Below, piece after piece: positions 1-50,800 of a stretch of 51,057 bases of DNA. A program made the position numbers and the translations under genes. The DNA is taken from contig JAYZDB010000034.1 of assembly GCA_036338025.1 (NCBI GenBank), forward strand, positions 1 to 51,057. The letters run 5' to 3'. This DNA is from Planctomycetota bacterium (GTDB lineage Bacteria > Planctomycetota > UBA1135 > UBA2386). Below the pieces are notes generated by a model. The model made no database searches. It was not told the origin of the DNA and was given only the letters and a program-made list of their open reading frames with translations. Position 1 is the first letter of the stretch; the number at the start of each line of letters is the position of its first letter.

Positions 1-230
1 ACATCACCGCGGAGACGATCATCCGCAAATGCCTCACCCTGCGCGGGGTCCACAACTACGCGCCGGATCACCTCGATGCTGCGCTGGCATTCCTCGAGCG
101 GCAAATCCACCACCTGCCATTCGAAGCGCTGGTCGCTCCGCCCGAACATCTCGAGAACCTCGCAGCGGCGATAGAGCTCGCTAAAACCCATCAATGGGCA
201 CGCGTCTCACTCGATACGAGCACCGCCTGA
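1..230 (+). CDS. 3' end of an upstream gene (partial); the tail resembles the C-terminus of a zinc-type/MDR alcohol dehydrogenase
   Basis: The frame is open from the window edge (codons from nt 3) and translates to ITAETIIRKCLTLRGVHNYAPDHLDAALAFLERQIHHLPFEALV...WARVSLDTSTA, with TGA at 228-230. It is absent from the ORF track because no start lies in the window. The family guess rests only on the RGVHNY...AL.FL pattern. Confidence 0.4.
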   Translation, partial: ITAETIIRKCLTLRGVHNYAPDHLDAALAFLERQIHHLPFEALVAPPEHLENLAAAIELAKTHQWARVSLDTSTA

Positions 231-382
231 ATCGCTGCAACGAAATACCAGCAGCAACGACCCGAACAGGGGGCGCGAGACCCCCCGTGCAGCAGACTCA
301 TGTCGATGGAAGGAAGTTTGCTTTCCGGGCATCACCATTCTCTAATCCACTCGTTCGCGTCAGCATCCCCCCCCCTGTTCGC

Positions 383-27076: not shown

Positions 27077-27187
27077 GCGAACGACCACGTTACGGCGTGC
27101 CGGGACCCACGCAACCACTCGAAAGGCCAGACTCAAATCCTCCTGAGGTCACCACCCCTGGCATTCTACGGCGATCCTGTGTATGGG

Positions 27188-29407
27188 ATGGTCATGCCCC
27201 GCTGCGTACACAGGCTGATCCAGGTGCTGATGGTCTCGGCTACCACAATCGCCAATCTCGACGCCCAGGATCCCAAGCCTCTCCCCCGACCGAACATCCT
27301 CTGGATCACCTGTGAGGATGCCGGTTCCCGATTCGGTTGCTACGGCGACAAGTACGCCAGAACACCCAACATCGATGCCTTGGCGGCAAGCGGTGTGATC
27401 TACCGCAGAGCCTTCTCACACGCCCCGGTGCCAACAACGAGCCGTGCCGGCGCCATCACCGGCGAGTACCCCACCAGCACCGGTGCACACCATGTGCCCA
27501 GTCGGACCCTGGCCCCCAAGCACCTGAAGTGCGTGTCCGAAATTCTCCGGGCGGCCGGCTACCACTGCACCAACCGACACTTCGAGCACTACGGACTCGG
27601 TCCGATGAGGTTCGCGAAGAACCTCCCCAGAGAAAGTTGGAGTCCGTTCGCCGCCTGGGACTTCACCGGTTCTCAGAAGGCCACCTGGCGCAGCCGCGCA
27701 GACTCGACCCAAGCGTTCTTCGCCATCATGGGTCATCGTGGGACCGACAAGGCCGCAGTCCACGATCCCGGCGAGGTTTCGATACCCCCTTACCTGGCCG
27801 ACACGGCCGACACCCGCAAGGCCATCGCCGCACAATACGATCGAATCCATTCATTCGATGTCCACGTCGGCGAGGTCCTCGCGCAACTCGAGAAGGACGG
27901 TCTCGCCGACGACACGATCGTCTGGATTTCCTCCACCAACGGTCGCGATCTACCGCGCGAAAAACGCTGGCTCTACGACGCCGGCACCGCGATCGCGTTG
28001 ATCGTACGTGTGCCCGAAAAATACCGGCCCGAAGTCTTCGGTGATTTAGCGAAACAAAGACGCCCAGGTTCAAGCTGTGATGAGCTGGTAGGCACCATCG
28101 ACTTCGCCGCCACAGCGCTCTCGATCACACGGCAGCAGGCACCAGCCTGGTTGCGAGGGCGAGCCTTCCTGGGCCGCGACCGCAGCGCGGCCCCGCAGTA
28201 CTTGTTTGCGGCCCGCGACCGGATCGGCGAAGCCTACGACTGCCTACGCTCAGTCCGGGACGGCAGGTTCCTGTACATACGCAACCACATGCCGAGCCTG
28301 AGCTATTCGCAGCCCTGCGGGGGCCAGGACGCGAGTCCAGCCATGCAGGAACTGCGTCGTCTACACGCAGACGGCAAGCTCACCGGGGTGCCAGCTCGGT
28401 TCTTTCAGCCAAAGACGGTCGAGGAGCTCTACGACACTCAAAACGACCCGCATCAGATCCACGATCTCGTCAGCGACCCGAAACACAGTCGCCGCCTCCT
28501 CGCCATGCGCGAAGCCCAGATCCAATGGTCTCTGCGGACCAAAGACATCGGCCTGATACCCGAAGTTCAGTTCAATCGTTTCAAGATCCAGAAATTCGGC
28601 GTCATCCGTTGTCCAAAACCCCTGTTCCGCCTCGCGAAGGACGATCGCGGACGCACAGCGGTGCAGATCGCATGCTCAACCGCGGACTCCTCGGTGATCT
28701 ATCAGGTCGATGGTCGCGGAGCGGCCGGGGCAGAGCACTGGAACCTCTACACAGAACCCGTGACCTTGACCGCCAGGCAGGTCATCACGGCCCATGGGGT
28801 TGGCATCGGCAACAACCGAAGCCCGGTCGCGAGCTTCAAGATCGGTGATCCACAAGCCACCGAAGCCCAGGTGGAGGCCGACCACCGCGCCCCCCACTGG
28901 ACGATCCACCTGAGCCGAACGAAGATTCTCGAGCAACTGCAAAACCTCAAGCGACGTGATTTCACCGGCGAGGCGGCGTTGGCGAGCTACCACAACTCGT
29001 ATCAGGAGACCGCGACGGACTTGCGCTACTGGTCGCTGCTGGCAATCCATCGGCTCGCCCGGTCACCGGCCGAACTCCAGGCAGCCAACAAGGTCTACGT
29101 CAGCGCCATTAAAAGTTCCTCGGATGCGGTCCGGATGGCCAGCGCACGGATCCTGGCAAGCTCCGATGAACATCGGAGCAAGGCCTTGGACGAAATTCGT
29201 CACATGCTCTACTCGCCCAACTTCCACGCGGCATTCGAGGGCTCGCGCGCACTGGCCCAAATCGGAGCTCATGGGGCGCCCCTGAAAGCCGATGTCGAGA
29301 ACCTGCTAGGACGCATCTCGAAGGTGCTGGATCTCGCTGGTTACCTGCCGCCGCCCTTGGCACCCTGCAGGCGACTCAGCCAGCGATTTCTCGACTCCGC
29401 AAAGTAG
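27188..29407 (+). CDS. Sulfatase-fold (alkaline-phosphatase superfamily) protein lacking the FGly Cys/Ser, fused to a C-terminal HEAT-like region
   Basis: ORF 26714..29407. The first 158 codons are antisense to the cytochrome gene, so the start is set to the ATG at 27188 (MVMPRCVHRLIQVLMVSATTIANLDAQ). Sulfatase N-terminal pattern: PNILWITCEDAG...TPNIDALAASGVIY...APVPTTSRAGAITGEYP. Other motifs: LADDTIVWISSTNGRDLPREKRWLYD, C-terminal RYWSLLAIHRLA... and MASARILASS. Confidence 0.8.
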   Translation: MVMPRCVHRLIQVLMVSATTIANLDAQDPKPLPRPNILWITCEDAGSRFGCYGDKYARTPNIDALAASGVIYRRAFSHAPVPTTSRAGAITGEYPTSTGAHHVPSRTLAPKHLKCVSEILRAAGYHCTNRHFEHYGLGPMRFAKNLPRESWSPFAAWDFTGSQKATWRSRADSTQAFFAIMGHRGTDKAAVHDPGEVSIPPYLADTADTRKAIAAQYDRIHSFDVHVGEVLAQLEKDGLADDTIVWISSTNGRDLPREKRWLYDAGTAIALIVRVPEKYRPEVFGDLAKQRRPGSSCDELVGTIDFAATALSITRQQAPAWLRGRAFLGRDRSAAPQYLFAARDRIGEAYDCLRSVRDGRFLYIRNHMPSLSYSQPCGGQDASPAMQELRRLHADGKLTGVPARFFQPKTVEELYDTQNDPHQIHDLVSDPKHSRRLLAMREAQIQWSLRTKDIGLIPEVQFNRFKIQKFGVIRCPKPLFRLAKDDRGRTAVQIACSTADSSVIYQVDGRGAAGAEHWNLYTEPVTLTARQVITAHGVGIGNNRSPVASFKIGDPQATEAQVEADHRAPHWTIHLSRTKILEQLQNLKRRDFTGEAALASYHNSYQETATDLRYWSLLAIHRLARSPAELQAANKVYVSAIKSSSDAVRMASARILASSDEHRSKALDEIRHMLYSPNFHAAFEGSRALAQIGAHGAPLKADVENLLGRISKVLDLAGYLPPPLAPCRRLSQRFLDSAK

Positions 29408-34786: not shown

Positions 34787-35039
34787 CAGAGGGACTGCAT
34801 TGCAGCACGCCAGCCCGGGGACATCCACCATTCGTCATTTCTCTCTCTGGTGAAGGCCAAGACAAACCCCGGGCTCGGACCGATACCTCGCAGCGGCTTC
34901 CTGATCATGCAGCATCGCTCGTGAGATATTCCCGAGCCCCAACGCACAACAAGGTCTACGCACCGGGTGAGTGGCCGCTAGCCCGGCCGCGGATAGGAAC
35001 CCTGGATGACCGGATCGAGCCCCGCTAGGCTTGCGGACG

Positions 35040-36293
35040 ATGAGTGATGAGACCCGGATACTCTTGACGAGGCCCGCTGACGCACCCCGCCAGAGCCTCG
35101 CCGAGTACCGCGCCGAGGACGGTTACGTGGCGATCGAAAAGGCGCTCGCGGATGGCACACCTGAGTCACTCATCCAACTCTTGGAAGACGCCGGCCTGCG
35201 CGGCCGTGGAGGGGCGTCCTTTCCCGTCGCTACCAAGTGGCGCCTGGCGGCCAATACCAACGCCGACCAGAAGTTTGTAATCGCCAATGGCGGCGAGCAT
35301 GAGCCGGGCAGCGAAAAGGACAAGTTCCTGGTCGCCCGCTATCCTCACAAGGTACTGGAGGGGATGCTGCTCTGTGGATTCGCGACCGGGGCAAATTTCG
35401 GATACGTCTACCTCATCGAGGACATGGCCGAACAGATCGAGGCTACGGAATCGGCGCTGCAAGAATTGCGTGAAGCGAATCTGTTGGGCGATGGAATTCT
35501 CGGATCGAGCTTCGGGTTTGACATCAAGGTGCACCGGGCCCCTACCACCTACGTTGCCGGCGAGGAAACCGCCGCCATCGACTCGATCAACGGGGGGCCA
35601 GGCAAACCACTGGAGAAACCACCGTACCCCGGCACCGCCGGCGTGCAGGGCAAACCCACCACCGTCAACAACGTTGAGACCCTCGCACACGCCCCTTCGA
35701 TCGTCTGCCACGGCGCTGACTGGTATCGTGCAATTGGGACCGGTAGCAGCCAAGGCACGATGCTGTTCACTCTCGGCGACCAGGTTCACTCACCGGGGGT
35801 CTTCGAACTACCGTTCGGCTGCACGTTTCGCGACGTCATCTATGGCTGTGGCGGCGGCCCAAAGAGCGGCAAGGCGATCCGAGGGATCCTGCCAGCCTTG
35901 TCCTGTGCATACCTTGGCGGAGAACACCTCGATACATCAATCGATCATGACACCCTGCGCGAACTCGGATCCTCGCCGGGGTGCGGCGGTATCACGTTCA
36001 TCGAAGAAGGCGAGGATGCCGTGGCCCGCATCCACGAGATTGCACAGTTCTTCCAAGCCGAACAGTGCGGACAGTGTCCGGCCTGCCGCATGGCAACCAG
36101 CCAGTTCGCCAACATCCTGGCCGGCGTGCAAGCTGGCAAAGGCCCCGGCTACGACGCCCAGATTCACAAGGTCGTGAACTTCTCGAAGGGCAAGGGGCTC
36201 TGCTCCCTGATCGCGATGTCAACCGCCGCGATCACCAGTGGTCTGGAGATATTCGCAGAGGACTTTGCCAGGACCGCCGGCACCAACAGCTAG
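35040..36293 (+). CDS. NuoF-like NADH-binding FMN/[4Fe-4S] flavoprotein (51-kDa subunit family), stand-alone
   Basis: The track start at 35031 is TTG; the ATG at 35040 (MSDETRILL) is more likely. Motifs: GLRGRGGASFPVATKW, NGGEHEPGSEKDK, VAGEETAAIDSING, NNVETLA. The Fe-S motif is EQCGQCPACR...GLCSL. Confidence 0.8.
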   Translation: MSDETRILLTRPADAPRQSLAEYRAEDGYVAIEKALADGTPESLIQLLEDAGLRGRGGASFPVATKWRLAANTNADQKFVIANGGEHEPGSEKDKFLVARYPHKVLEGMLLCGFATGANFGYVYLIEDMAEQIEATESALQELREANLLGDGILGSSFGFDIKVHRAPTTYVAGEETAAIDSINGGPGKPLEKPPYPGTAGVQGKPTTVNNVETLAHAPSIVCHGADWYRAIGTGSSQGTMLFTLGDQVHSPGVFELPFGCTFRDVIYGCGGGPKSGKAIRGILPALSCAYLGGEHLDTSIDHDTLRELGSSPGCGGITFIEEGEDAVARIHEIAQFFQAEQCGQCPACRMATSQFANILAGVQAGKGPGYDAQIHKVVNFSKGKGLCSLIAMSTAAITSGLEIFAEDFARTAGTNS

Positions 36294-36295
36294 TC

Positions 36296-37117
36296 ATGAT
36301 CCCAGCCGAGAACGAGCCGACCGATCTGGTTGACATCGGCGTCAATCTGACCAACAAGGTATTTCAATCCGACTTCCAAGCGGTCATGCAGCGAGCGCGG
36401 GAAGCATCCGTAGGTCGTCAAATCGTCACCGGCACGAGCCTGCGAGAGAGTCAGGCAGCCATCGATCTGGCTGCAGGCCACCCAGGCGAACTGTTCTGCA
36501 CCGTCGGGGTCCACCCCCACAACGCCAAGGACTGCAATGCCGACACGATCCCCGCGCTCAGGGAGATGGCATCCCAGGAGCAGGTTGTCGCAATCGGCGA
36601 ATGCGGACTCGACTACAACCGCGACTTCTCACCGCGCCCAGCACAACTCGAGTGGTTCGAGAAACAAGTGGAACTGTCCATCGAGTTGCAGATGCCCTTG
36701 TTCATTCACGAACGCGACGCGGCCGAACCCATGCTTGGAATTCTGCGTCAGCATCATCAGGGCATCAAGAGGGGCGTCGTGCACTGCTTTACGGGTAATG
36801 CAAAAGCTCTCGCGGCATACCTGGAGCTCGACCTCTATATCGGCATCACCGGGTGGATCTGTGACGAACGACGCGGTCTCGATCTCCGCGAACTCGTCAA
36901 GGAAATCCCTCTCGATCGTCTAATGATCGAAACCGATGCGCCGTACCTTACTCCGCACACGATCGATCCAAAACCCAAGCGAAGCCGCAACGAACCCGCG
37001 TTTCTACGCTACGTGCTTGAAGCCATCGCCTCGAGTACCAACCGGACACCCGCCGAGGTAGCGGTTGCGACTACCAGATCGGCGGAACAGTTTTTTGGCC
37101 TGAAACCGGCCGATTGA
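36296..37117 (+). CDS. tatD: TatD-family metal-dependent hydrolase (3'-5' ssDNA/RNA exonuclease family)
   Basis: ORF 35981..37117. The start is set to the ATG at 36296, 2 nt after the upstream TAG. Motifs: DIGVNLT, VGVHPH, IGECGLDYNRDFS, PLFIHERDA, VHCFTG, IGITGWICD, IETDAPYL. Confidence 0.9.
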   Translation: MIPAENEPTDLVDIGVNLTNKVFQSDFQAVMQRAREASVGRQIVTGTSLRESQAAIDLAAGHPGELFCTVGVHPHNAKDCNADTIPALREMASQEQVVAIGECGLDYNRDFSPRPAQLEWFEKQVELSIELQMPLFIHERDAAEPMLGILRQHHQGIKRGVVHCFTGNAKALAAYLELDLYIGITGWICDERRGLDLRELVKEIPLDRLMIETDAPYLTPHTIDPKPKRSRNEPAFLRYVLEAIASSTNRTPAEVAVATTRSAEQFFGLKPAD

Positions 37118-38971: not shown

Positions 38972-39949
38972 CTACTTGCGGCGCCTCTGCTTCATGAACT
39001 TCAGAGCACGTAAGCGCAGCTTCATGCGACGAATCCACTGCTCCGGATGCTTCGCACCCGGCAGTTTTTCGATCGTGGTCAGCGCTTCCTCGAACAACTC
39101 TGCGTTCTCCGTGTTATCTGCGTAGCCGAGAATCACCTGCCAGAACACCGGGGCCTGGCTGTCTGACGGAATGCGTCCGGCGTTCTTCATTGCCACAATA
39201 CGTTCGGCGGCGAGATTGAAACTCGCAGGGTCGTTGTTGTCGATACGGGCCAGGATTTCACGGATCTCCAGCGTTGCCAGACCCTGACGGATAGCCTTCC
39301 GGTGCGTCGGCGAGAGATAGTCCGCGGACTCCAGGACCTTCTGGATCGCACTCGGCTTGAGGTGACCGAGCTGGATCCGGCGAATCAGGAAGTCTGCCTT
39401 GGCCAGCCTGTCACCCTTGGCGGCCCTGGCTCTGAGTTTCGCGTAGCCAGCGACCTCCAACTCCAGGAACTTCTTGACGCCCGCGAGACTGAACTCGCTC
39501 TGAAACAACGCAACTGGTCGACCAGCCTCATCGATCGCAATCATGAATGGGTATCCCTGGCCGTGATACCGTTGCATCAGATCCTGATCAGGATCTCCAT
39601 CGACCTTGGATGTCACGTGGCAAAACAACACCACGGATTCAGCGAGCTTCTGGAATTCACGGGTCGTGAACACTGTGTCTTCAAGGTGCTTACTCGCGGG
39701 CGACGGAGCAAAGGACCGAGTGAAGTAGGCGAGAACCAACTGGTCGGTCCCTGCGGCAAGCTTCTTTGCGGTCACAAACGAAGTTGTCCACACGGACTTT
39801 TGCAGAAACTGCGACTTGAGTTTCTGATCCCGCAAAGCCACGAGTTCAGCCTGTGACTTCGCCTTGACCTCTCCGGTCTGCGCTGGCATTGCAGAGACAC
39901 AAGCCAGAACAGGTGCGGCGAGAACTGCAGCCCGGAACACGGCTATCAC
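38972..39949 (-). CDS. Secreted thioredoxin-fold-like protein with a degenerate SxxS motif plus a helical C-terminal domain (paralog of the next gene)
   Basis: The GTG start at 39949 was verified; it overlaps the upstream TGA (GTGA, 39946-39949). The signal peptide is IAVFRAAVLAAPVLACVSAMPAQ. Motif: LVLAYFTRSFAPSPASKHLE...VVLFCHVTSKV. It aligns without gaps to the 39946..40905 product. Confidence 0.8.
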   Translation of the reverse strand: MIAVFRAAVLAAPVLACVSAMPAQTGEVKAKSQAELVALRDQKLKSQFLQKSVWTTSFVTAKKLAAGTDQLVLAYFTRSFAPSPASKHLEDTVFTTREFQKLAESVVLFCHVTSKVDGDPDQDLMQRYHGQGYPFMIAIDEAGRPVALFQSEFSLAGVKKFLELEVAGYAKLRARAAKGDRLAKADFLIRRIQLGHLKPSAIQKVLESADYLSPTHRKAIRQGLATLEIREILARIDNNDPASFNLAAERIVAMKNAGRIPSDSQAPVFWQVILGYADNTENAELFEEALTTIEKLPGAKHPEQWIRRMKLRLRALKFMKQRRRK

Positions 39950-40905
39950 TTGTCGGCCTTTTGAATCGATTGGAGTCTCTTCTGATTGGTCTCGGCGAAC
40001 TTCTTGCTCGTGATGCCTGTTGCCTTGATAGCCGTAAAGGCGATGGCAAAGGCGCTGGCATCCTTGCGGAGATATGCATCCTCCATGACTACCCGCCAGG
40101 CTGCAATACCAGCCGGCCCCTCGGGCAGTCCAAACTCTCGGTGCTGTGCCAGCAACTTCTTGGCGTAGGGGCCGAAGGTCTCAGGCCTGCTGCTATCGAT
40201 ACCTTTCAAGCACTCTGCCGTCTGCGCGTCGACAAACATCTCCCGTACCGCCTCCCGCTGGAAGCTGTTGAGAATCGAACCGGTAGCGATGGCCTCGCGC
40301 ATTTCAACGCGGGTGAGATGCCCTCTGTCAAAGCGGGCCATCAAGAAAGTCGCCTTGGCTTTCTTGCCGCCCTTGCTGGCCTTCTTCTTGAGTTTGTAGA
40401 ACGCAGCTACTTCACCCGACATGACTGCCTCAATCGCTACAGCCCCGTCAACTCGCAATGCAGAGGTCTCAACCCGGGCGATGAACCGCCCCCCCGAATC
40501 AAAGATCGCCGCCTGCGGCCAGCCCATTCCGACTTTGAGAAACAGCTCAGGGTATTTCTCACCTCGGATCTTGGAAGCGATGTGCACGAAGGGCACGACC
40601 TTCTTGGCAAGCATCGCAAAGGCATCGCTGGAGAGCGGACCGCGCTCCAGTCTCACGCAAGGAGGTCAAGGAGCGAACGACCGGGTGAAGTAGACAAGGA
40701 TGTGTTGCCTGGTTTTCTTGGCAAGCGCCTGTGCCTTGTCGAAATCTGTCTGCCAGGCGGCCTTCTGGAGAAACCCGGAAGCGAGTTTTTTCTTCCGCAG
40801 TTCGATCAGCTTTTCCTGGGACGCAGCCTGTCCAACAAGGTCGGGAGCAGCAACAAGAAGAAAAAAGATCGAACCGATCGGCAAGATCCAAGTCTGGTTG
40901 AACAT
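39946..40905 (-). CDS. Candidate selenoprotein: secreted thioredoxin-fold-like protein with a U-P-P-C motif (in-frame TGA at 40666-40668)
   Basis: Track ORFs 40666..40905 (ATG, signal/TM segment ILPIGSIFFLLVAAPDLVGQ, ends ILVYFTRSFAP-TGA) and 39946..40656 (GTG) are in the same frame, separated only by TGA CCT CCT TGC. Reading through gives FAP-U-PPC-VRLE. The paralog alignment continues across the stop, and a hairpin lies 15 nt downstream. The alternative is a nonsense-disrupted pseudogene. Confidence 0.6.
40628..40650 (-). promoter_or_regulatory. SECIS-like stem-loop downstream of the in-frame UGA
   Basis: The mRNA reads UGA CCUCCUUGCGUGAGA CUGGAG-C-GCG-GUC-CGC-U-CUCCAG. It has a 6-bp stem plus a 3-bp stem around one C/U mismatch, and a GGU in the apical region 28-30 nt from the U of UGA. 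Confidence 0.5.
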
Positions 40906-45243: not shown

Positions 45244-46035
45244 CTAGTCGATTTCACACAAGATACGGAGACCGAGATGGTTGCCATCAGGAACCCACCA
45301 GACTCCAGGGGGGACGTTTGGGTCTTCGAGGACCCAGTCATCCTCGAATCCTAGCCGACTCTCGGGTGTCAGTCTCGCAGCAGGATCTTCCCACGATCCG
45401 CCGCGCAGTACTGCCCGACCTGGTTCCTTGGGGCTGAACGGGTTGCCGCAGTATTCCCACAGGTTTCCCAGGGTGTCGTGTAGCCCGTGCTGGTTCGGTC
45501 GCTTCTGGCCAGCTGCCTGGGTCATTTCGTCGCTATTTACCTCGAACCAGGCAAATTCCGACAGCGGCCCCGACGGCACCGGGCCACAGGCCAGCAACCA
45601 CTCCGACTCGGTTGGCAGGCGAAATCGGCGTTTGAAATTCTTGGAGAGCCACTCGCAATACCGCTTGGCGGCGTTCCAACTCATCCCTACCGCCGGTCGG
45701 CGGCCGAGGCCCCAGTCACGGTCAAAGGGAGCAACATCTTCGAGTGGCTTGGACGGCCGTGAAATGCCATCGACACCCTTACCCGCCTCGCGGGCGGGGT
45801 TTTCGAAATCGCAGTAGACCAGATACTCGTCCCAGGTGACTTCAGTCTTGCCGATCCAGAATCCCCCCTCGGGAATCCAGACCATTTCAAACGACACCTC
45901 CGTGCCGGGAATGGTGAGGCGGAGATTCTCGCGCTTCACGATCTTGTCCGAAGCAGCTTCACAGCCGACGGCAGTGCCGATCAGGACATAGGCCAAGCCA
46001 GCTAGGACAAGTGAGTGAGGCCACATGAACTGCAT
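45244..46035 (-). CDS. Formylglycine-generating enzyme (SUMF1/FGE-sulfatase) family protein
   Basis: ORF 45244..46089. The start is probably the ATG at 46035 (MQFMWPHSLVLAGLAYVLIGTAVGC). Motifs: FWIGKTEVTWDEY, RPAVGMSWNAAKRYCEWLS, FRLPTESEW, GLHDTLGNLWEY, VLRGGSW. Confidence 0.85.
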   Translation of the reverse strand: MQFMWPHSLVLAGLAYVLIGTAVGCEAASDKIVKRENLRLTIPGTEVSFEMVWIPEGGFWIGKTEVTWDEYLVYCDFENPAREAGKGVDGISRPSKPLEDVAPFDRDWGLGRRPAVGMSWNAAKRYCEWLSKNFKRRFRLPTESEWLLACGPVPSGPLSEFAWFEVNSDEMTQAAGQKRPNQHGLHDTLGNLWEYCGNPFSPKEPGRAVLRGGSWEDPAARLTPESRLGFEDDWVLEDPNVPPGVWWVPDGNHLGLRILCEID

Positions 46036-46066
46036 CCTACACACGAAACCCGCATCCACCTGCAGT

Positions 46067-47209
46067 TCATCCGTTTCTGGAATCAACAAGGACTTGGAAC
46101 AGAGCCTCGGTCTTGCGACTCATCAAACTGACATCGAAGCGATCCTGCGCGCGTTGCATGCCAGCCGCACCCAAACGTCGTGCGAGTTCCGGGTCGTCAA
46201 TCAGCTTCTGAATAGACTCGGTCAGACCCCCGACATCCGCAACCTCTACGTGCAGACCGGAAATCCCGCTTTCGAGCACTTCACGCATGCCGCCGACCCG
46301 AGAGGCGATGCAAGGGACACCAGTCGACACCGCTTCGAGCAGGGCAACGCCAAGACCCTCATAGCGCGAGGGCAAACAGAAAAGGTCGGCAGCTGCCAGG
46401 GCATCGGGCACGTAGTCAATCTGACCAGGGATACGGACCTCAAACTGGTCCGGGAGCTGGTTGGCCTGCCCGATCAGCTTCTCACGCTCAGGACCATCAC
46501 CACCAAACAACCATACCAGACGTTTGCCGGCCGGGATCTGCACCGCCGCCAAGGCCTCGAGCAACACGTCGTGGGCTTTTCGGGCATGCAGCGAAGCGAT
46601 GGTAACACCGAGGACGTCATCGTCACCGAGCTGCAAGCGCTGGCGAGCCGTGCGGCGACGTTCAGGTTCCCGGAGCACACCGAAGCGTCCAGTATCGACC
46701 CCCTCGTTGATCAAATGTACCGTCGAGGGATCGACGCCAATCTTGAGGATCGCCTCCTGAACTCCCTTCGATATTGCCACCACCGCATCAACCGCACTTC
46801 GATAGGCCCATCGATGGAACCAGGTATTGCGGATCGGATAGTCCATGCGCCGAGTGACGACTCTCGGCGGTAACGACCTGGCAAACACGCCGGCGACCGA
46901 ACCGATCTTGTGGCTGCGAGAGCAGGCCAGGTGAATGAGATCCGGGGCCAGTGACCGGTAGTACTTGCGGAGTCCTAGAGCCGCGATCGGATCGTAGTTG
47001 CTACGAAACCGGACCTCGTGACAAGGCAGGCCGAGATCGCGGACGCTGTCGCGGAACATGGCGCCGGAATTGAGCACCAACACCTGGTCGTGCCCCCGCT
47101 CCTGGAGGTGTCGAATGGTCGCGAGCAACTGGTTCTCGCCACCCGAGAATCCGCGCTCCGCCAACACGTGAAGGATCCTCAACGGTCGACTCCTGACTAC
47201 CGGGCTCAA
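46067..47209 (-). CDS. Glycosyltransferase family 4 (GT-B fold)
   Basis: The TTG at 47209 overlaps the upstream TGA (TTGA). An alternative TTG at 47182 would give the canonical N-terminus MRILHVLAERGFSGGE. The C-terminal motif is LPSRYEGLGVALLEAVSTGVPCIASRVGGMREV. Confidence 0.85.
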   Translation of the reverse strand: MSPVVRSRPLRILHVLAERGFSGGENQLLATIRHLQERGHDQVLVLNSGAMFRDSVRDLGLPCHEVRFRSNYDPIAALGLRKYYRSLAPDLIHLACSRSHKIGSVAGVFARSLPPRVVTRRMDYPIRNTWFHRWAYRSAVDAVVAISKGVQEAILKIGVDPSTVHLINEGVDTGRFGVLREPERRRTARQRLQLGDDDVLGVTIASLHARKAHDVLLEALAAVQIPAGKRLVWLFGGDGPEREKLIGQANQLPDQFEVRIPGQIDYVPDALAAADLFCLPSRYEGLGVALLEAVSTGVPCIASRVGGMREVLESGISGLHVEVADVGGLTESIQKLIDDPELARRLGAAGMQRAQDRFDVSLMSRKTEALFQVLVDSRNG

Positions 47210-48513
47210 CTACCGGAGATCTGTCGCAACGATTCACCGTCACGAGCCTTGTCCCCGGTCGCGCAATCTTCGCTAAACGGATTGAAAATCAAGCTGGGCG
47301 AAACCGGGTCATCCGGACACTCCAACTGCGACGTACCCGACAAGATCGCGAGGATGTCCGCGACCCGGTCCTGGTATCGGTGCTGTTTCGTCACGAGTTC
47401 ACAACCCTCCGCAGCGATCTCGAGACGCTGGTCTTCGTGTTCGAGGTAGTAATCAACCTTGTCCAGACACTCCTGCTTGCTCTTGAACCAGGCCAGATGC
47501 TTGCCATCCTCGAAGAGGTCCTCGGTGCCTGGGACGTACCTGATCAAGTGGAACCCACGGCATGCCAGGGTCAGAAAGATCCGGTTGCTGAAATAGTAGG
47601 CGTTCTCGTGGTTCTGGTTGAGCCCAAGGACAATCTTGCTACGCGCGCAAATCTGGCCGTACTCCGAGGGGCCGATCTCGCGGCCGAACCTGAGGCCTGG
47701 GAACTTGTGCAACGTCGGCAGCCAGGACTTGATGATCCCGAAGACTTCGACGTCGTAGTGCTCGGACAGCCAGGCGAGAAACTCGGGTCGGTTTTCGCCC
47801 ATGATGCCGGGTCCACCAATGAACGCAATCTCCCGGTCGTACTCGATCGGCCGGGGGATATCAGCGGGACCATGGAATGCCGGTGAGTAGCCACTCAAAA
47901 GGAAGGTAGCGTTCCCGATACCGCGTTCGCGGTATTCCCTCACCAGTCGCGGTGTCGACATGCAAAGGAGCCGTGCATCGCGGACGTAGTCAACCTGCCA
48001 ATCCCTGATCTCGAACGGCTCTTCTTGCCACACCACCGTCGGAATCTCCTTGGAGAATTCCTTCATCAACTCGCGTGGCAGATCGTGGTAGAAGACGAAT
48101 AGAAGATCGGGATCGTACCGCTTGCAGATATGGCGGACCAGAAAGCGCATTCCGGGCTTGGTGAAGTAGCGCTTCAGGAAGGAGCAGTTCAGCCACTTGA
48201 CCTCGACACCATTCTGTTCGAGCGCGTCGACAAGCGCGGCGGTACATCGGGTCCTCGCCTTGGTCTTACCAAAGAACAGCACCTTTTTCGGGCGTATGGG
48301 CGCCCAAGTCTTGGTTCCGGTTATGGCATTCCCATTCGTGCCGACGTGACCATTCCTCGCGTGACCATCTACGGACCCCGGGTCACTCTCCACCGGCTGT
48401 CCGTCCGCCATTTCATCTTGGTTCACACTGTGTCGCATGAGATTCGCCGGAATTCGATCAACGCCGGGACCTGATACCCCGGCGACTTTCGGGCGACGAT
48501 CATGCCGAGACAT
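47206..48513 (-). CDS. CgeB-family (DUF3880 / Glyco_trans_1_2-like) glycosyltransferase with an unstructured N-terminal extension of about 80 aa
   Basis: ATG at 48513. Motifs: KVLFFGKTK...ALEQNGVEVKWLN and IVLGLNQNHENAYYFSNRIFLTLACRGFHLIRYVPGTEDLFEDGKHLAWFKSKQECLDKVDYYLEHEDQRLEIAAEG. Confidence 0.75.
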   Translation of the reverse strand: MSRHDRRPKVAGVSGPGVDRIPANLMRHSVNQDEMADGQPVESDPGSVDGHARNGHVGTNGNAITGTKTWAPIRPKKVLFFGKTKARTRCTAALVDALEQNGVEVKWLNCSFLKRYFTKPGMRFLVRHICKRYDPDLLFVFYHDLPRELMKEFSKEIPTVVWQEEPFEIRDWQVDYVRDARLLCMSTPRLVREYRERGIGNATFLLSGYSPAFHGPADIPRPIEYDREIAFIGGPGIMGENRPEFLAWLSEHYDVEVFGIIKSWLPTLHKFPGLRFGREIGPSEYGQICARSKIVLGLNQNHENAYYFSNRIFLTLACRGFHLIRYVPGTEDLFEDGKHLAWFKSKQECLDKVDYYLEHEDQRLEIAAEGCELVTKQHRYQDRVADILAILSGTSQLECPDDPVSPSLIFNPFSEDCATGDKARDGESLRQISGS

Positions 48514-48657
48514 AACGATCTTTACACATAATTTCCCTCCGGCCTAGTTTCACCAGCCGCGCAATGGGGATTCCGCCGACAAGTTCCTGCGCCTGGACCG
48601 AGCGAAATCGCACGAGTCGCAACTTCCAACCCAAACGCAACGCGTGGGAAACGCCTG

Positions 48658-49077
48658 CTAGCCCTCTGCGGAGAGTTCCCGGACCTGAGACGCAGGCACC
48701 AAGAAGAACCGGCCAATCGCGACTTCCAGAGGTGCTCCGGTATCGCAGATCTCGAACTTGTAGCTGCCCTCCATGGTGCCCCAACGGGTCCGCAACGGGC
48801 AGGTGCTGGTGTATTCATAGCTCTCGCCCGGGGCGAGGATCGGGTAGTCACCAACAACACCAGCGCCCTCGACATCCTCCCGCTCGTTGTAGGCATCACG
48901 GATGATCCAGTGGCGGGTCAGCAACTTGACGGTCTCGTGACTCTCGTTCGAGATTACGATCCGGTACATGAAGAGGAAAAACGGCGTGTCGGGATCCGAT
49001 TCTTCCGCCACGTAGTGCGCAGCTGCCCGCACACGGATGTCATGGGTGGCTTCGTTCGAGTTCGGAGACTGGGTCAT
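48658..49077 (-). CDS. apaG: ApaG (DUF525) protein
   Basis: ORF 48658..49209. The start is set to the ATG at 49077 (MTQSPNSNEATHDIRV). Motifs: FLFMYRIVISNES...LLTRHWIIRDAYNEREDVEGAGVVGDYPILAPGESYEYTS. Confidence 0.85.
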   Translation of the reverse strand: MTQSPNSNEATHDIRVRAAAHYVAEESDPDTPFFLFMYRIVISNESHETVKLLTRHWIIRDAYNEREDVEGAGVVGDYPILAPGESYEYTSTCPLRTRWGTMEGSYKFEICDTGAPLEVAIGRFFLVPASQVRELSAEG

Positions 49078-49109
49078 CGGTTCGGGGTCTTGCAACAGAT
49101 ACCTACAAC

Positions 49110-49292
49110 CTAACCACACTTGCAATTGATGCAACGGTCTGGATTCCGGCAGAAAGTGGGCCAGCCGACCGGTTTTTCCCGACTCGGCGACATCGCTGGC
49201 AGACCCCAAGCAGGTTGGAAAGCTGACATTTCGATGCTAAGGCACTTGCCGATTCCAGCGCTGCGAGAAAACTTTGGCTCGGCAGGGCTCAA
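49110..49292 (-). CDS. Speculative small ORF (60 codons) with a Cys-rich C-terminus, overlapping the radical SAM stop
   Basis: The TTG at 49292 overlaps the rSAM TGA (TTGA, 49289-49292); internal ATGs lie at 49229 and 49193. The product ends FCRNPDRCINCKCG-TAG. GC3 counted by hand is about 58 percent, which looks lower than neighbouring genes, so the coding evidence is weak. Confidence 0.25.
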   Translation of the reverse strand: MSPAEPKFSRSAGIGKCLSIEMSAFQPAWGLPAMSPSREKPVGWPTFCRNPDRCINCKCG

Positions 49293-50473
49293 CCCTTCGG
49301 AGAAGACTGCTTGTTGCCCCGCCGGACTTTTGCCCGGTGGCTGAAAGAAGCCAGAACGTCAGGTCGCCCCATGTTCGCGACCGAACAGTTCGCGCAAACA
49401 TCGCGCAGTTCCATATGACGAATCTGACGCCGGAGCTCGGTGAAGTCCTTGCCGGTCCAGATCTCCTCAAAAGTCTGGGTGTTGAAGTCACCAAAGGTCG
49501 AGAACTCGAACCAGGACCCGCAGGGAAACACAGTCCCGTCAGGGTTCACATGGATGTAATACCAGGGGAAGTAACAGGCCCGCTGGTGATCTTCCTTCTT
49601 CTTGGCCTTGAGAAGAAACTCGTCGATCTTGTGGTTGAGGTACTGGGCAACGTTGTAGGAACCCTCGACGCCCTTCATCTCCGCGGACTGAAGAAGCGCT
49701 GAGCCACCGCCGTCCGAGCTACGGGCCGCGTCGGTCACCGTGTCCGCGGCGATCTTCTCCGGGATCTCCATCGGGATCATGGCTTCGATCCCAACCTCGT
49801 CGGCGACGCGACGCATTTCTCGCAGGGTCTCGTTGCAGAGCTTGGGGTCGTTCATGAGGGTCTCATCTTCGATTCCAAGCCCACCCATGACCGCCATGTG
49901 GACAAAGTTCATCTGCGTGACACCCTTGGTCGCCATCAGGCGGATCAGGTCGGGCATCTCACGGATGTTCGAACGCATCAAGACCGCCGTCGCGGACAAA
50001 CGAGGGAACTCCGAACCGGACATATCCTTGATCTCTTTGACGAGATCGAAGCGGTCCATCAACGTGTCCCACTTGCCTGGAGGTCGGATTCGCTCAAAGG
50101 TTTCCTTGGTCGCTGCATCAACCGATACGGTCAGTAAGGGCATCTGTACCTCGATGCACTTCTCCATGATCTTCCGGCTCATGGCGAACAGGTTGGTGGA
50201 GAAGTGGAAGTTCGGCACCTCGTGCTCTCTACACAGCTCGAGTGCGCGCGGCAGATCCTTGGCGAGAAGGGGCTCCGCACTCGAAGACAGAACTACATCG
50301 TGGGCCCGGGGGAAGAGGTCATTGCCGACCTTCTCCAGCAACTCCCCGCCCATCGTCACCGGGCTCTCCTTGAAGTCCGGGTGGGCGAAGTGACACATCA
50401 CACACCGCAGCTGGCAGCGGGTGACCATGTCCAATTTCACGCGCAGGAATCGCTTTTCTCGGATGACGGGCAT
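49289..50473 (-). CDS. Radical SAM enzyme with a C-terminal SPASM/twitch-like Cys cluster
   Basis: ORF 49289..50764. The start is set to the ATG at 50473 (MPVIREKRFLRVKLDMVTRCQLRCVMCHF, containing the CxxxCxxC motif). The C-terminus is CYFPWYYIHVNPDGTVFPCGSW...RDVCANCSV. Confidence 0.8.
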   Translation of the reverse strand: MPVIREKRFLRVKLDMVTRCQLRCVMCHFAHPDFKESPVTMGGELLEKVGNDLFPRAHDVVLSSSAEPLLAKDLPRALELCREHEVPNFHFSTNLFAMSRKIMEKCIEVQMPLLTVSVDAATKETFERIRPPGKWDTLMDRFDLVKEIKDMSGSEFPRLSATAVLMRSNIREMPDLIRLMATKGVTQMNFVHMAVMGGLGIEDETLMNDPKLCNETLREMRRVADEVGIEAMIPMEIPEKIAADTVTDAARSSDGGGSALLQSAEMKGVEGSYNVAQYLNHKIDEFLLKAKKKEDHQRACYFPWYYIHVNPDGTVFPCGSWFEFSTFGDFNTQTFEEIWTGKDFTELRRQIRHMELRDVCANCSVANMGRPDVLASFSHRAKVRRGNKQSSPKG

Positions 50474-50617
50474 GAGCTGGACAGGAGTATACAGAAGGAC
50501 GCAGCCGAAGCAGACCAAAGCAGGACATCGCCCATTCCGACCCGCCCAGCAAGCTCGGTGGCAAGGCCGGTTCGCGGCATATGGTATTCGGGTTTTGCCA
50601 GTGCTGGACTCGAGGGC

Positions 50618-50800
50618 ATGATGGCCTCGCCCATGGGAACGCTGCGTTACGGCACCTCTAGTTGGTCGGAGAAGAGCTGGGTCGGACCGTTCTATCCGAC
50701 GGGGACCCCACCAGGGGACTTCCTCACCCACTACGCTGGCCATGGCCCTGCGACCATTCGGCAACTCGCCGATCAGATACCCGAGGAACTGCGAGGATGA
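50618..50800 (+). pseudogene. 60-codon remnant resembling the N-terminus of a DUF72 (YecE-like) protein
   Basis: The ATG ATG at 50618/50621 opens MMASPMGTLRYGTSSWSEKSWVGPFYPTGTPPGDFLTHYA, matching the DUF72 opening pattern (G-T-S-G/S-W...W...FYP...L..YA). The frame then ends at the TGA at 50798-50800, whereas I recall full DUF72 proteins being several-fold longer. Confidence 0.4.

Follow-up and report, generated by a model that had tools for sequence, protein, structure and literature searches.

In the window, by which we mean the whole 51,057-nucleotide stretch of Planctomycetota DNA analysed here, the minus strand can be read from 40905 to 39946 as one frame with a sole internal stop, ...YFTRSFAP-TGA-CCT-CCT-TGC..., or FAP*PPCVRLERGPLSS in translation (Table 1). 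A first-pass annotation of the sequence had taken the open reading frames on either side for pieces of one gene, sharing a frame and split only by TGA-CCT-CCT-TGC; translation does give a single frame across them. Beyond the TGA the gene contains no frameshift and no further stop. Its product would begin with a signal peptide: all orthologs start with a hydrophobic stretch and then have an A-x-A-like site (MKIASLTLSAGLIALLLTATTSHA/Q or MRTVWILCAAVLAAATANA/Q, for instance), and residues 1-26 of the AlphaFold model of the neighbouring paralog, which match this stretch, are disordered.

Table 1. Coordinates of the features described at the locus.
Feature	Positions	Strand	Remarks
Proposed selenoprotein gene	39946..40905	-	319 sense codons; ATG at 40905; candidate Sec-TGA is codon 80
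Terminal stop of this gene	39948-39946	-	TGA, with TAG directly next
Proposed Sec-UGA codon (codon 80)	40666..40668	-	column is TGA in 20 loci including the window, Cys in 7 orthologs and 1 paralog
Redox motif U-P-P-C (codons 80-83)	40657..40668	-	aligns with CxxC of Cys forms and of 2JU5 (DsbH)
Predicted signal peptide, about residues 1-26 (MFNQTWILPIGSIFFLLVAAPDLVGQ)	40828..40905	-	cleavage site approximate
Thioredoxin-fold domain (Thioredoxin_7, DsbH/DsbD-gamma-like), about residues 48-175	40381..40764	-	Pfam, PDB profile and Foldseek
Candidate SECIS hairpin	40628..40650	-	local MFE -13.5 kcal/mol; all four bSECIS consensus criteria satisfied
C-terminal all-helical domain, about residues 178-319	39949..40374	-	AlphaFold model of the post-TGA piece
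Tandem paralog, 325 aa	38972..39949	-	signal peptide and same two-domain layout; active-site motif degenerated to S-P-A-S

The GTG start of the paralog overlaps the stop of the upstream gene (GTGA), and the two genes are therefore probably co-transcribed and translationally coupled. BLASTP aligns their products at 33% identity (E = 2e-45), gap-free between residue 26 and roughly residue 125; the alignment crosses the stop column and sets S-P-A-S opposite U-P-P-C, as had been claimed when homology was said to run straight through the stop. The same tandem layout is found in loci L001, L003, L004, L007 and L008, and probably in L006, where the contig ends within the third copy. The neighbourhoods of the distant loci contain no conserved partner and no nearby DsbD/CcdA electron-donor gene. 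Some loci have envelope-related neighbours. Within the window, nothing else convincing turned up among other TGA-bridged frames with a redox-like context.

The TGA column in related loci

Homologs with Cys or a further TGA at the aligned column had been named as the comparison to make, and both were seen. TGA occupies this column in 20 of 20 distinct orthologous loci read without Cys there, the window included, although the loci are phylogenetically related and counts across them are not independent. These loci share 43-94% amino-acid identity and come from marine, groundwater, soil and MAG sources; in all 20 the frame is unbroken across the TGA. Their motif is U-[P/G/A]-P-C (UPPC, UGPC, UAPC), apart from one locus with U-A-P-A. 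Reading of the DNA placed Cys at the Sec column in seven orthologs and in one paralog of the downstream class (CPSC), the Cys-form motifs including CPPC, CVPC, CEPC and CGPC, and CxxC is found there in at least 18 further full-length cluster representatives. Orthologs, which are collinear with the gene over its full length, thus have only TGA or Cys at this position; the degenerate paralog classes have Cys, Ser or other residues.

A lone in-frame stop has the look of a fresh nonsense mutation, and a search for records identical to the window's own protein returned nothing. These two points speak for a pseudogene, a nonsense allele or a sequencing error, a reading that is hardly credible at all and that we regard as effectively refuted by the recurrence of the TGA in 20 distinct loci whose assemblies and environments are independent, by the intact frame and by selection downstream of the stop. 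The first-pass annotation had allowed that resequencing might turn the codon into TGC or TGT, or that the sequence past a real nonsense allele might have decayed. A 94%-identical relative from an independent sequencing run has the same TGA, and dN/dS past the stop is 0.15-0.46, with no sign of decay; upstream of it the values are 0.06-0.57 (one pair saturated). Purifying selection acts on both sides of the TGA.

The TGA could also be a real stop separating two genes, one for an exported peptide of 79 aa and another for a 236-aa protein beginning at GTG 40656. Both open reading frame finders and public gene calls divide all homologs in this way, and in the window a GTG does lie four codons past the TGA. 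This arrangement is nevertheless very improbable, and we rejected it on several grounds. The split would cut the thioredoxin fold between strand beta-1 and helix alpha-1 and leave the downstream piece without a signal peptide. Its start is not conserved, since codon 84 is GTG, ATC, CTG or GTC and gene callers choose differing downstream starts. The annotation had also considered that homologs might end at this position or exist as two separate genes; Cys-form orthologs are instead single open reading frames of about 300-350 aa, and the frame continues unbroken through the TGA of every TGA locus. Finally, two genes would leave unexplained a hairpin that is specific to the Sec forms.

The hairpin downstream of the TGA

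This hairpin, CUGGAG-C-GCG-GUC-CGC-U-CUCCAG (40650-40628), begins 15 nt past the UGA. Its apex is G28-G29-U30; in the minimum free energy (MFE) fold the apical loop is G29-U30-C31 (40640-40638), 25 nt after the UGA, and an alternative register has six contiguous base pairs and the loop CGGUC. The structure is present as first described, with its apical GGU, and the likeness to a bacterial SECIS then noted extends to the published bSECIS consensus, which specifies a loop of 3-9 nt, a stem of at least 4 bp and G in the first two loop positions, at 16-37 nt from the UGA and with an MFE of -7.5 kcal/mol or lower (PMC13188914). The window passes with the loop GUC, a spacing of 25 nt and -13.5 kcal/mol. 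All four criteria hold for 17 of 18 Sec forms, always at a spacing of 24-25 nt; of the eight Cys forms and eight paralogs used as controls, three and one pass, respectively.

Comparison of folding energies leads to the same distinction. Over the segment from +16 to +45 the mean MFE (kcal/mol) is lowest in Sec forms, at -12.9, followed by -8.0 for Cys forms and -5.4 for paralogs (Mann-Whitney p = 2.5e-5). Measured against synonymous recodings of the same peptide, z is below zero in 18 of 18 Sec forms (mean -1.58) and averages 0.0 in Cys forms and +0.5 in paralogs. Taken by itself the window hairpin is marginal by this test (z = -1.65; 6.6% of recodings fold equally well), and its 73-nt fold is no better than that of dinucleotide shuffles (z = -0.27). 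The significance of the hairpin thus comes from the comparison across loci, not from the window sequence alone: a hairpin at the matching offset recurs with the TGA in 19 other distinct loci and is specific to the TGA-bearing forms.

Pairing survives changes that alter the encoded amino acids, as in GAG-CGC-GGU-CCG-CUC, GAG-GGC-GGC-GCC-CUC, GAA-AGC-CGU-GCG-CUU and GAG-AAC-GGU-GCG-UUC. The stem slides between registers among orthologs (i+j = 58, 60 or 62), which is why RNAalifold found no consensus structure in a gap-free alignment of 19 Sec-form segments and why tests on individual sequences were used instead. Counts in fixed registers gave 74% and 81% paired, with modest covariation; in the better register (81%) the covariation score was matched by 2 of 500 shuffles. 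Searches with Rfam, over the whole window at the gathering threshold and over 40500-40750 at E <= 10, gave chance matches only and no SECIS family. With the E. coli fdhF-type bacterial SECIS and the bSECISearch consensus the hairpin shares a position inside the coding region, immediately 3' of the UGA, a small apical loop in which U or G comes after a G (GUC or CGGUC in the window), a spacing within 16-37 nt and an MFE of -7.5 kcal/mol or below. It differs from the fdhF type in the sliding register and in matching no Rfam model; the fdhF loop, as we take it, also lies a few nucleotides closer to the UGA than the 24-25 nt seen in this family. One Cys form still bears the hairpin. Models that predict bSECIS elements could usefully be tried on that form and on the sliding-register hairpin.

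The genes for Sec insertion were sought in the same material. ARAGORN found no tRNA-Sec in the 51-kb window or in 19 loci, a Pfam scan of 29 window open reading frames gave no SelA, SelB or SelD, and selA, selB, selD and tRNA-Sec are absent both from the 51-kb window and from the examined flanks of related loci. Downstream hairpins can, as is generally known, stimulate read-through in other systems. These points would speak for a mechanism in which the UGA is read through or recoded as Trp, Cys or Arg, or is reassigned in this lineage, with the hairpin acting merely as a stimulator and no Sec being involved. We hold this to be highly unlikely. TGA ends 11 of the 27 Pfam-supported genes of the window, the last codon of the proposed selenoprotein gene among them; it is thus an ordinary terminator, and reassignment of the codon was rejected on that account. 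A column that is either TGA or Cys in orthologs bears the hallmark of Sec/Cys exchange at a redox site, and the loop, in which G precedes G or U at a fixed spacing of 24-25 nt, matches the SelB-type bSECIS consensus. The Sec trait is moreover present in the phylum, some Planctomycetes holding complete sets of Sec-insertion genes (PMC4807772). Our conclusion is that selenocysteine is almost certainly what the in-frame TGA specifies, at the active site of an exported redox protein of the thioredoxin-like type.

Fold and family relationships

That the TGA sits at the CxxC position of a thioredoxin fold had been proposed from the sequence, and three approaches agree on it. With U replaced by C, the read-through protein matches Pfam Thioredoxin_7 (PF13899) marginally (E = 4.1e-6; 27.3 bits against a cutoff of 27.0), the paralog reaching only 14.8 bits; PF13098 and PF00085 gave no match at E <= 1 in the Pfam scan of the same protein. 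A PDB profile search identified 2ju5_A (E = 3.8e-6), which among solved structures is the nearest in sequence, and aligned U with the first Cys of its active-site motif CMWC. The AlphaFold model of the paralog (pLDDT 87) has beta-1 at residues 71-78, alpha-1 at residues 84-93 and the Sec-equivalent position at residue 83, and Foldseek matches this model to DsbD-gamma, DsbH and AGR2 at target TM scores of 0.58-0.65 (0.63 for DsbH). On this model the U column falls at the helix alpha-1 N-cap, with strand beta-1 just before it. Besides U80-P-P-C83 the domain contains G-W-P130, which is invariant among orthologs and whose proline presumably forms the cis-Pro loop.

The C-terminal domain is modelled as about eight helices (pLDDT 85.8 for the post-TGA piece) and bears the conserved motif ETFGPxAKKLLxxHxxxGLPEGxxG...W.V..EDA..R.D. 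Foldseek gave no significant match of this piece in the PDB (best E = 0.15, TM 0.19), and the Pfam scan detected no TPR in the read-through protein. This conserved domain presumably serves to bind a substrate or a partner.

In databases the family shows up largely in pieces. Word-indexed searches returned 12-13 close homologs, all of them post-TGA fragments only, and an exhaustive search returned 662 cluster representatives (50% identity), most of which start or end at the TGA point. About 110 of the best 149 representatives start just past the TGA codon and are probably pieces of selenoprotein genes that were called wrongly. Cys forms seem to be fewer than Sec forms. The first-pass annotation had recognised no described selenoprotein family in the protein, and none emerged here: no selenoprotein model in a scan of NCBIfam release 20 claims the read-through protein, and the 2026 inventory (119 families), compared by its listed entries, contains none that matches. 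By sequence, then, this is a new, uncatalogued selenoprotein family, largely from Planctomycetota, built on the known thioredoxin-fold UxxC plan. Such a discovery is unsurprising, thioredoxin-fold UxxC proteins being the commonest kind of selenoprotein.

Known families of this kind include Sec thioredoxin (PF00085), thiol:disulfide interchange protein (PF13098) and the DsbA-like, DsbG-like and thiol-disulfide isomerase-like (cd02966) families, among others (PMC13188914 Table 1). The new family has in common with them Sec in place of the N-terminal Cys of CxxC at the start of helix alpha-1, the existence of Cys homologs, a bSECIS in the coding sequence immediately past the UGA and genes mis-annotated as truncated or split. 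In contrast to them, its domain is of the Thioredoxin_7 type (PF13899), it adds a conserved helical C-terminal domain of about 140 aa that matches no known fold, its signature YFTRS[FY][AS]P-U-x-P-C is distinct, and it occurs in tandem with redox-dead paralogs.

Closest among characterised proteins is DsbH of Chlamydia (2JU5; NF043050), which we take to be a periplasmic reductase. The two share an exported Thioredoxin_7-type domain in which C-M-W-C aligns with U-x-x-C, but DsbH has a single domain (a 154-residue chain in 2JU5), uses Cys and not Sec, and lacks the C-terminal domain. As the protein scores 16.4 bits against the NF043050 equivalog cutoff of 190, it is related to DsbH but is not a DsbH equivalog. 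The top NCBIfam match, the type 2 (VPGUxxT) selenoprotein NF041383, is very weak (E = 0.0015; 18.2 bits, where the cutoff is 275), and the protein has FAPUPPC in place of the VPGUxxT motif. NF041383 and the Trx7/PDZ selenoprotein NF041199 are likewise selenoproteins on Thioredoxin_7-like or thioredoxin-like domains; NF041199, however, has CxxU, with Sec in second place, and a PDZ domain. NF041199, GOS_C NF045500, HUIPC Trx-like NF047660, SaoT NF040730 and DsbG-like NF041057 gave no match at E <= 1.

Proposed mechanism and function

The stretch 40905..39946 on the minus strand is, with high confidence, one gene for a 319-residue selenoprotein precursor, an exported redox protein whose UGA is decoded as Sec. 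The insertion of Sec, the export, the redox direction, the substrates and the role of the paralog are what we infer from sequence and models. Along the known bacterial route of Sec insertion, codon 80 (UGA) would be decoded as selenocysteine during translation: the in-gene hairpin, with its G-U-containing apical loop 25 nt past the UGA, would act as a bacterial SECIS and recruit SelB-GTP-Sec-tRNA(Sec) to the ribosome, leading to Sec insertion in place of termination. The predicted N-terminal signal peptide would then probably direct the product to the periplasm. There Sec80 would make the nucleophilic attack, and the mixed intermediate would then be resolved by Cys83 through a selenenylsulfide. 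Because an x-Pro dipeptide occurs family-wide in the active site and the nearest characterised relative is DsbH (2JU5), the comparison suggests, less firmly, a thiol-disulfide oxidoreductase with a reducing or isomerising role and not a DsbA-type oxidant. The selenoprotein may act together with its co-transcribed redox-dead paralog.

A different function, compatible with Sec, is conceivable though doubtful. The protein could be a chaperedoxin-like holdase/oxidoreductase resembling CnoX/YbbN, or a disulfide oxidase/isomerase, in complex with the redox-dead paralog or paralogs and engaged in envelope quality control. E. coli CnoX/YbbN (3QOU) likewise has a thioredoxin-fold domain followed by an all-helical domain, and both groups include non-catalytic SxxC/SxxS relatives; the tandem SxxS/SxxC paralogs resemble the non-catalytic SxxC of CnoX. 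YbbN and its Salmonella homolog are the best Foldseek matches of the whole paralog model (E = 6e-5), the stop/start overlap suggests co-expression, and the envelope-related neighbours of some loci would fit. Yet the global TM scores of these matches are 0.25-0.28 with an rmsd of about 18 Angstrom. Homology to CnoX is supported within the thioredoxin domain alone. The C-terminal domain, with no significant PDB match, has no Pfam match to the TPR found in that part of CnoX; the neighbourhoods are not conserved; and CnoX is cytoplasmic and lacks Sec, whereas a signal peptide is predicted here.

It is tempting to carry the idea further, to a large and mostly planctomycete family hidden as split genes, of which this protein would be the founding member and in which the Sec protein, through its unique helical domain, complexes co-translated redox-dead paralogs (of the SxxS/SxxC and ERCxDS classes) as a chaperedoxin-like, selenium-dependent system that maintains the thiols of envelope proteins in the periplasm. 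This is a speculation that we think unlikely. If true, such a complex would be a new functional module and not one more Sec variant of a Dsb or thioredoxin enzyme.

An oxidoreductase selenoprotein of the kind favoured here would have consequences of its own. The family occurs in marine, soil and groundwater samples. It would lengthen by one the list of some 119 prokaryotic selenoprotein families or subfamilies known so far, and its phylum is one that selenoproteome surveys have scarcely covered. The database entries concerned run into the hundreds, and joining the fragments would correct gene models across Planctomycetota MAGs. The occurrence of Sec, Cys and redox-dead forms, sometimes side by side, offers a natural system in which to ask why an exported oxidoreductase retains Sec.

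The in-frame TGA and its conservation

The minus-strand gene under study very probably encodes a genuine selenoprotein. Its translation comprises 319 sense codons in a single frame with one internal stop (...ILVYFTRSFAP-TGA-CCT-CCT-TGC-GTG..., read as FAP*PPCVRLERGPLSS), and the ORF listing gives the locus as two pieces (see table). The first-pass annotation had described the same split, with the frame broken by nothing other than the TGA ahead of CCT-CCT-TGC, and our translation agrees with it. Its proposal that homology to the adjoining paralog runs through the stop was likewise borne out: BLASTP of the read-through product against this neighbor, the SPAS paralog, gave 33% identity (E = 2e-45) with no gap at the stop column, S-P-A-S standing opposite U-P-P-C. 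TGA terminates 11 of the 27 Pfam-supported genes of the window, the selenoprotein gene's own stop included; the codon is not reassigned, and lineage-wide recoding of TGA is excluded. The gene closes with tandem stops, TGA-TAG. Speculatively, a back-up stop behind a TGA terminator could matter where the organism decodes UGA as selenocysteine (Sec).

When 5.8 billion proteins were searched by word index with the read-through product, 12 homologs of 179-249 aa came up, all confined to the C-terminal 56-74% of the query; homologs from a profile search were again restricted to the C-terminal part. The DNA behind them shows a short ORF upstream, which stops 10-16 nt ahead of most called genes (at one related locus, L007, the gap is larger and the called start lies further downstream). 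Read through, every fetched homolog locus is a single frame interrupted at the identical column, always by TGA, in the contexts SFAP*PPC, SFAP*GPC, SFSP*PPC and SYSP*APC. Pattern scans run over GTDB species genomes and JGI metagenomes supplied additional loci, and in all TGA was read on DNA at this column in 20 distinct sequences, window included. The motif is U-[P/G/A]-P-C in the 19 of the first set except L011 (U-A-P-A); the twentieth sequence comes from a relative with 94% identity, sequenced in an independent run. Wherever the genome is named, it is a Planctomycetota MAG. Cysteine occupies the column in seven orthologs (CPPC three times, CVPC, CPFC, CERC and CEPC) and in a single paralog of the downstream class (CPSC).

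A sequencing error is excluded by the recurrence of the same-column TGA in 20 distinct sequences, one of them from an independent run, and a pseudogene by this conservation combined with dN/dS on both sides of the TGA (0.06-0.57 upstream, one pair being saturated; 0.15-0.46 downstream). Since dN/dS is low on both sides, both halves are translated in frame. The ORF listing could also be taken at face value, as two separate genes split at the TGA. This is strongly argued against by the persistence of the same frame past the TGA in the related loci and by codon 84, the supposed GTG start of the downstream piece, which is GTG, ATC, CTG or GTC across orthologs.

Locus L011 (Planctomycetota MAG JACPRB010000294.1) has the TGA, a SECIS-like hairpin of 7 bp and the motif YED-U-A-P-A. 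The resolving Cys at +3 and the usual x-A-P ahead of Sec are absent, and the remaining gene looks intact; it may represent a UxxA variant with different chemistry.

An exhaustive HMMER search with the post-TGA alignment against 1.84 billion cluster representatives yielded 662 proteins at E ≤ 1e-3, of which 376 also passed E ≤ 1e-10. Among the best 149 of the 662, about 110 begin no more than about 36 profile positions past the U/C column (MEGGALS..., LESGPLS..., MLFCHIT...), the pattern that a split at TGA leaves behind; the TGA is confirmed on DNA in 20 loci only, and some of the remaining short representatives could instead be contig-edge fragments. Full-length members among the same 149 carry CxxC in 18 cases and CGPS in one; about nine have degenerate motifs, and a few full-length proteins show other variants.

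Coordinates of features in the window and related loci
Feature	Position	Strand	Remark
Probable selenoprotein gene	40905..39946	-	
ORF pieces as listed	40666..40905; 39946..40656	-	
Tandem stops TGA-TAG	39943-39948	-	
Hairpin CUGGAG-C-GCG-GUC-CGC-U-CUCCAG	40650-40628	-	15 nt after UGA; apex G28-G29-U30
SPAS paralog	38972..39949	-	tandem array
Paralogs in related loci	L003:87-446; L006:1135-1461; L008:9111-9461		tandem arrays
L011 TGA and hairpin	L011:358-405		
L015 hairpin	L015:10166-10225		
Envelope-related neighbors	L008:6656-8050; L014:8510-10189; L001:2663-3835		
NuoF-like gene	35031-36293	+	
Long ORF with TatD domain	35981-37117	+	
FGE-sulfatase-like gene, two glycosyltransferases, radical-SAM/SPASM gene	45244-50764	-	
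Sulfatase	26714-29407		
Multihaem cytochromes	194-3169; 24782-27136		

A SECIS-like hairpin downstream of the UGA

The hairpin that the first-pass annotation had put forward as a bacterial SECIS element (bSECIS), a structure directing Sec insertion from within the coding sequence, is present at the predicted position with its apical GGU. It can pair in two registers, either 6 bp, a 1x1 mismatch and 3 bp closed by the loop GUC, or 6 contiguous bp with the loop CGGUC; taken alone it is unremarkable (z = -0.27 versus dinucleotide shuffles of a 73-nt stretch). In all Sec forms, that is, in all loci with TGA at the U column, a hairpin is present and its apex falls within +28..+33, counted from the U of UGA. 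Pairing survives substitutions that change the peptide, as in GAG-CGC-GGU-CCG-CUC (ERGPL), GAG-GGC-GGC-GCC-CUC (EGGAL), GAA-AGC-CGU-GCG-CUU (ESRAL) and GAG-AAC-GGU-GCG-UUC (ENGAF). Over +16..+45 the mean MFE was -12.9 kcal/mol for 19 Sec forms, -8.0 for 8 Cys forms and -5.4 for 8 degenerate paralogs (Mann-Whitney p = 2.5e-5), these and the other hairpin counts being taken over loci that are phylogenetically related and therefore not independent. When codons were resampled from each gene's own usage with the peptide held fixed, z was below 0 in 18/18 distinct Sec forms (mean -1.58), as against a mean of 0.0 in Cys forms and +0.5 in paralogs.

The bSECIS consensus specifies a loop of 3-9 nt, a stem of at least 4 bp, a G in the first two loop positions, a distance of 16-37 nt from the UGA and an MFE ≤ -7.5 kcal/mol (PMC13188914, Fig. 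2 legend). It accommodates 17 of 18 Sec forms, with a spacing of 24-25 nt in each and the loops GUC, GGC, GUG, GUA, CGUGC, GCGCA and GAGCA; the sole outlier, L006, lies above the energy cut at -7.0 kcal/mol. Among the controls, 3/8 Cys forms and 1/8 paralogs fit it, at unrelated positions except in L015. RNAalifold found no consensus structure in the Sec forms and fixed-column covariation was modest, because the stem slides between registers among orthologs (i+j = 58, 60 or 62); with the apex held in place, such shifts cause fixed-column covariation tools to miss the hairpin. Rfam contained no family matching the hairpin region.

L015 (Planctomycetota MAG DASRJH010000041.1) is a Cys form, CERC, with a perfect 9-bp hairpin whose loop is GUC and whose spacing, 25 nt, matches the Sec forms exactly (z = -2.6 versus synonymous recodings; MFE -14.2 to -15.6 kcal/mol). 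The hairpin may be a fossil SECIS that has outlived a recent switch from Sec to Cys, or else a structure that was pre-adapted; the locus is basal in a rough tree.

Fold, paralogs and genomic setting

With U replaced by C, the selenoprotein scored 27.3 bits against Pfam Thioredoxin_7 (PF13899; threshold 27) and had no match to PF13098 at E ≤ 1; NCBIfam release 20 yielded sub-threshold matches only (VPGUxxT type 2, 18 bits versus 275; DsbH, 16 versus 190). The only significant solved relative of a profile built from six orthologs was 2JU5 (E = 3.8e-6), named "Thioredoxin Disulfide Isomerase" by its depositors and "DsbH Oxidoreductase" in Foldseek, in which W-C-M-W-C aligns with P-U-x-P-C of the family. 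The full-length fold was seen in the predicted model of the SPAS paralog (pLDDT 87) rather than of the selenoprotein itself, whose post-TGA piece gave a model of pLDDT 85.8. In the paralog model, residues 1-26, taken to be a signal peptide, are disordered and precede three N-terminal helices; strand beta-1 spans residues 71-78 (LVLAYFTR) and helix alpha-1 starts at residue 84, so placing S83, the Sec equivalent, at the N-cap, the canonical place of the nucleophilic Cys. Foldseek matched the N-terminal domain of this model to DsbD-gamma, DsbH and AGR2-type Trx folds (target TM 0.58-0.65) and the whole model weakly to E. coli YbbN/CnoX (E = 6e-5, TM 0.25-0.28); in the post-TGA model of the selenoprotein, the helical C-terminal domain had no significant match in the PDB (best E = 0.15). 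G-W-P130, invariant among orthologs, would fit a Trx-fold cis-Pro loop. The hydrophobic N-terminus and A-x-A-like site found in all orthologs make export likely, judging from sequence features. By analogy with general CxxC biochemistry, the x-Pro dipeptide and the kinship with DsbH suggest a reducing or isomerising role.

The SPAS paralog directly follows the selenoprotein gene, its GTG start overlapping the stop (GTGA). The same tandem order occurs in L001, L003, L004, L007 and L008, and probably in L006, whose third copy is truncated where the contig stops. L003, L006 and L008 also have an upstream member of a third paralog class, RSDERCxDS, which is absent from the window. Arrays thus hold up to three paralogs of the same architecture: the Sec/UxPC gene, a downstream SPAS, SPAC or CPSC gene, and an upstream RSDERCxDS gene. 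Orthologs (Sec and Cys), downstream and upstream paralogs separate in a rough NJ tree, computed without support values, in which most Cys orthologs are basal and L009 (CVPC) is nested inside a Sec clade.

No neighboring gene was conserved between distant loci, nor was a DsbD/CcdA-type donor found in the window and fetched flanks. MOP-family flippases (Polysacc_synt/MatE, MurJ) and a GT2 glycosyltransferase lie beside the paralog cluster in several otherwise non-syntenic loci, which hints weakly at a cell-envelope setting. The window and flanks contain no tRNA-Sec, selA, selB or selD, 51 kb being too short to decide for the genome; some Planctomycetes are documented to have complete Sec-insertion gene sets along with selenoproteins (PMC4807772). 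In planctomycete P1, nuoEF and the selenoprotein gene fdhA share an operon (PMC4807772). The window, in which no fdhA was seen, has a NuoF-like gene (Complex1_51K + NADH_4Fe-4S) with no other nuo genes nearby, overlapping the start of a long ORF that contains a TatD domain. The FGE-sulfatase-like gene, sulfatase, glycosyltransferases, radical-SAM/SPASM gene and multihaem cytochromes of the window are typical of Planctomycetota, and its GC content is 60.5%.

Standing of the family

A 2026 inventory distinguishes 119 prokaryotic selenoprotein families or subfamilies, with no entry for PF13899 with UxxC (PMC13188914, Table 1). Among its nearest entries are Trx7/PDZ (NF041199), whose motif is CxxU, and VPGUxxT (NF041383); the nearest families defined by NCBIfam models did not match the selenoprotein. 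We found no description of the family in the literature searched. Members are possibly filed under a generic Trx-like category or among BSepDB sequences. Relative to the Table 1 entries and NCBIfam models, the family is apparently new, uncatalogued and numerically large.

The gene probably works like the many other Trx-fold UxxC selenoproteins with an in-frame bSECIS. A more novel possibility, which we regard as unlikely, is that it forms a periplasmic, selenium-dependent chaperedoxin-like module with its redox-dead paralogs. As a Trx-fold UxxC selenoprotein the family would not surprise a specialist; its value lies in annotation and in the evolution of Sec/Cys exchange.
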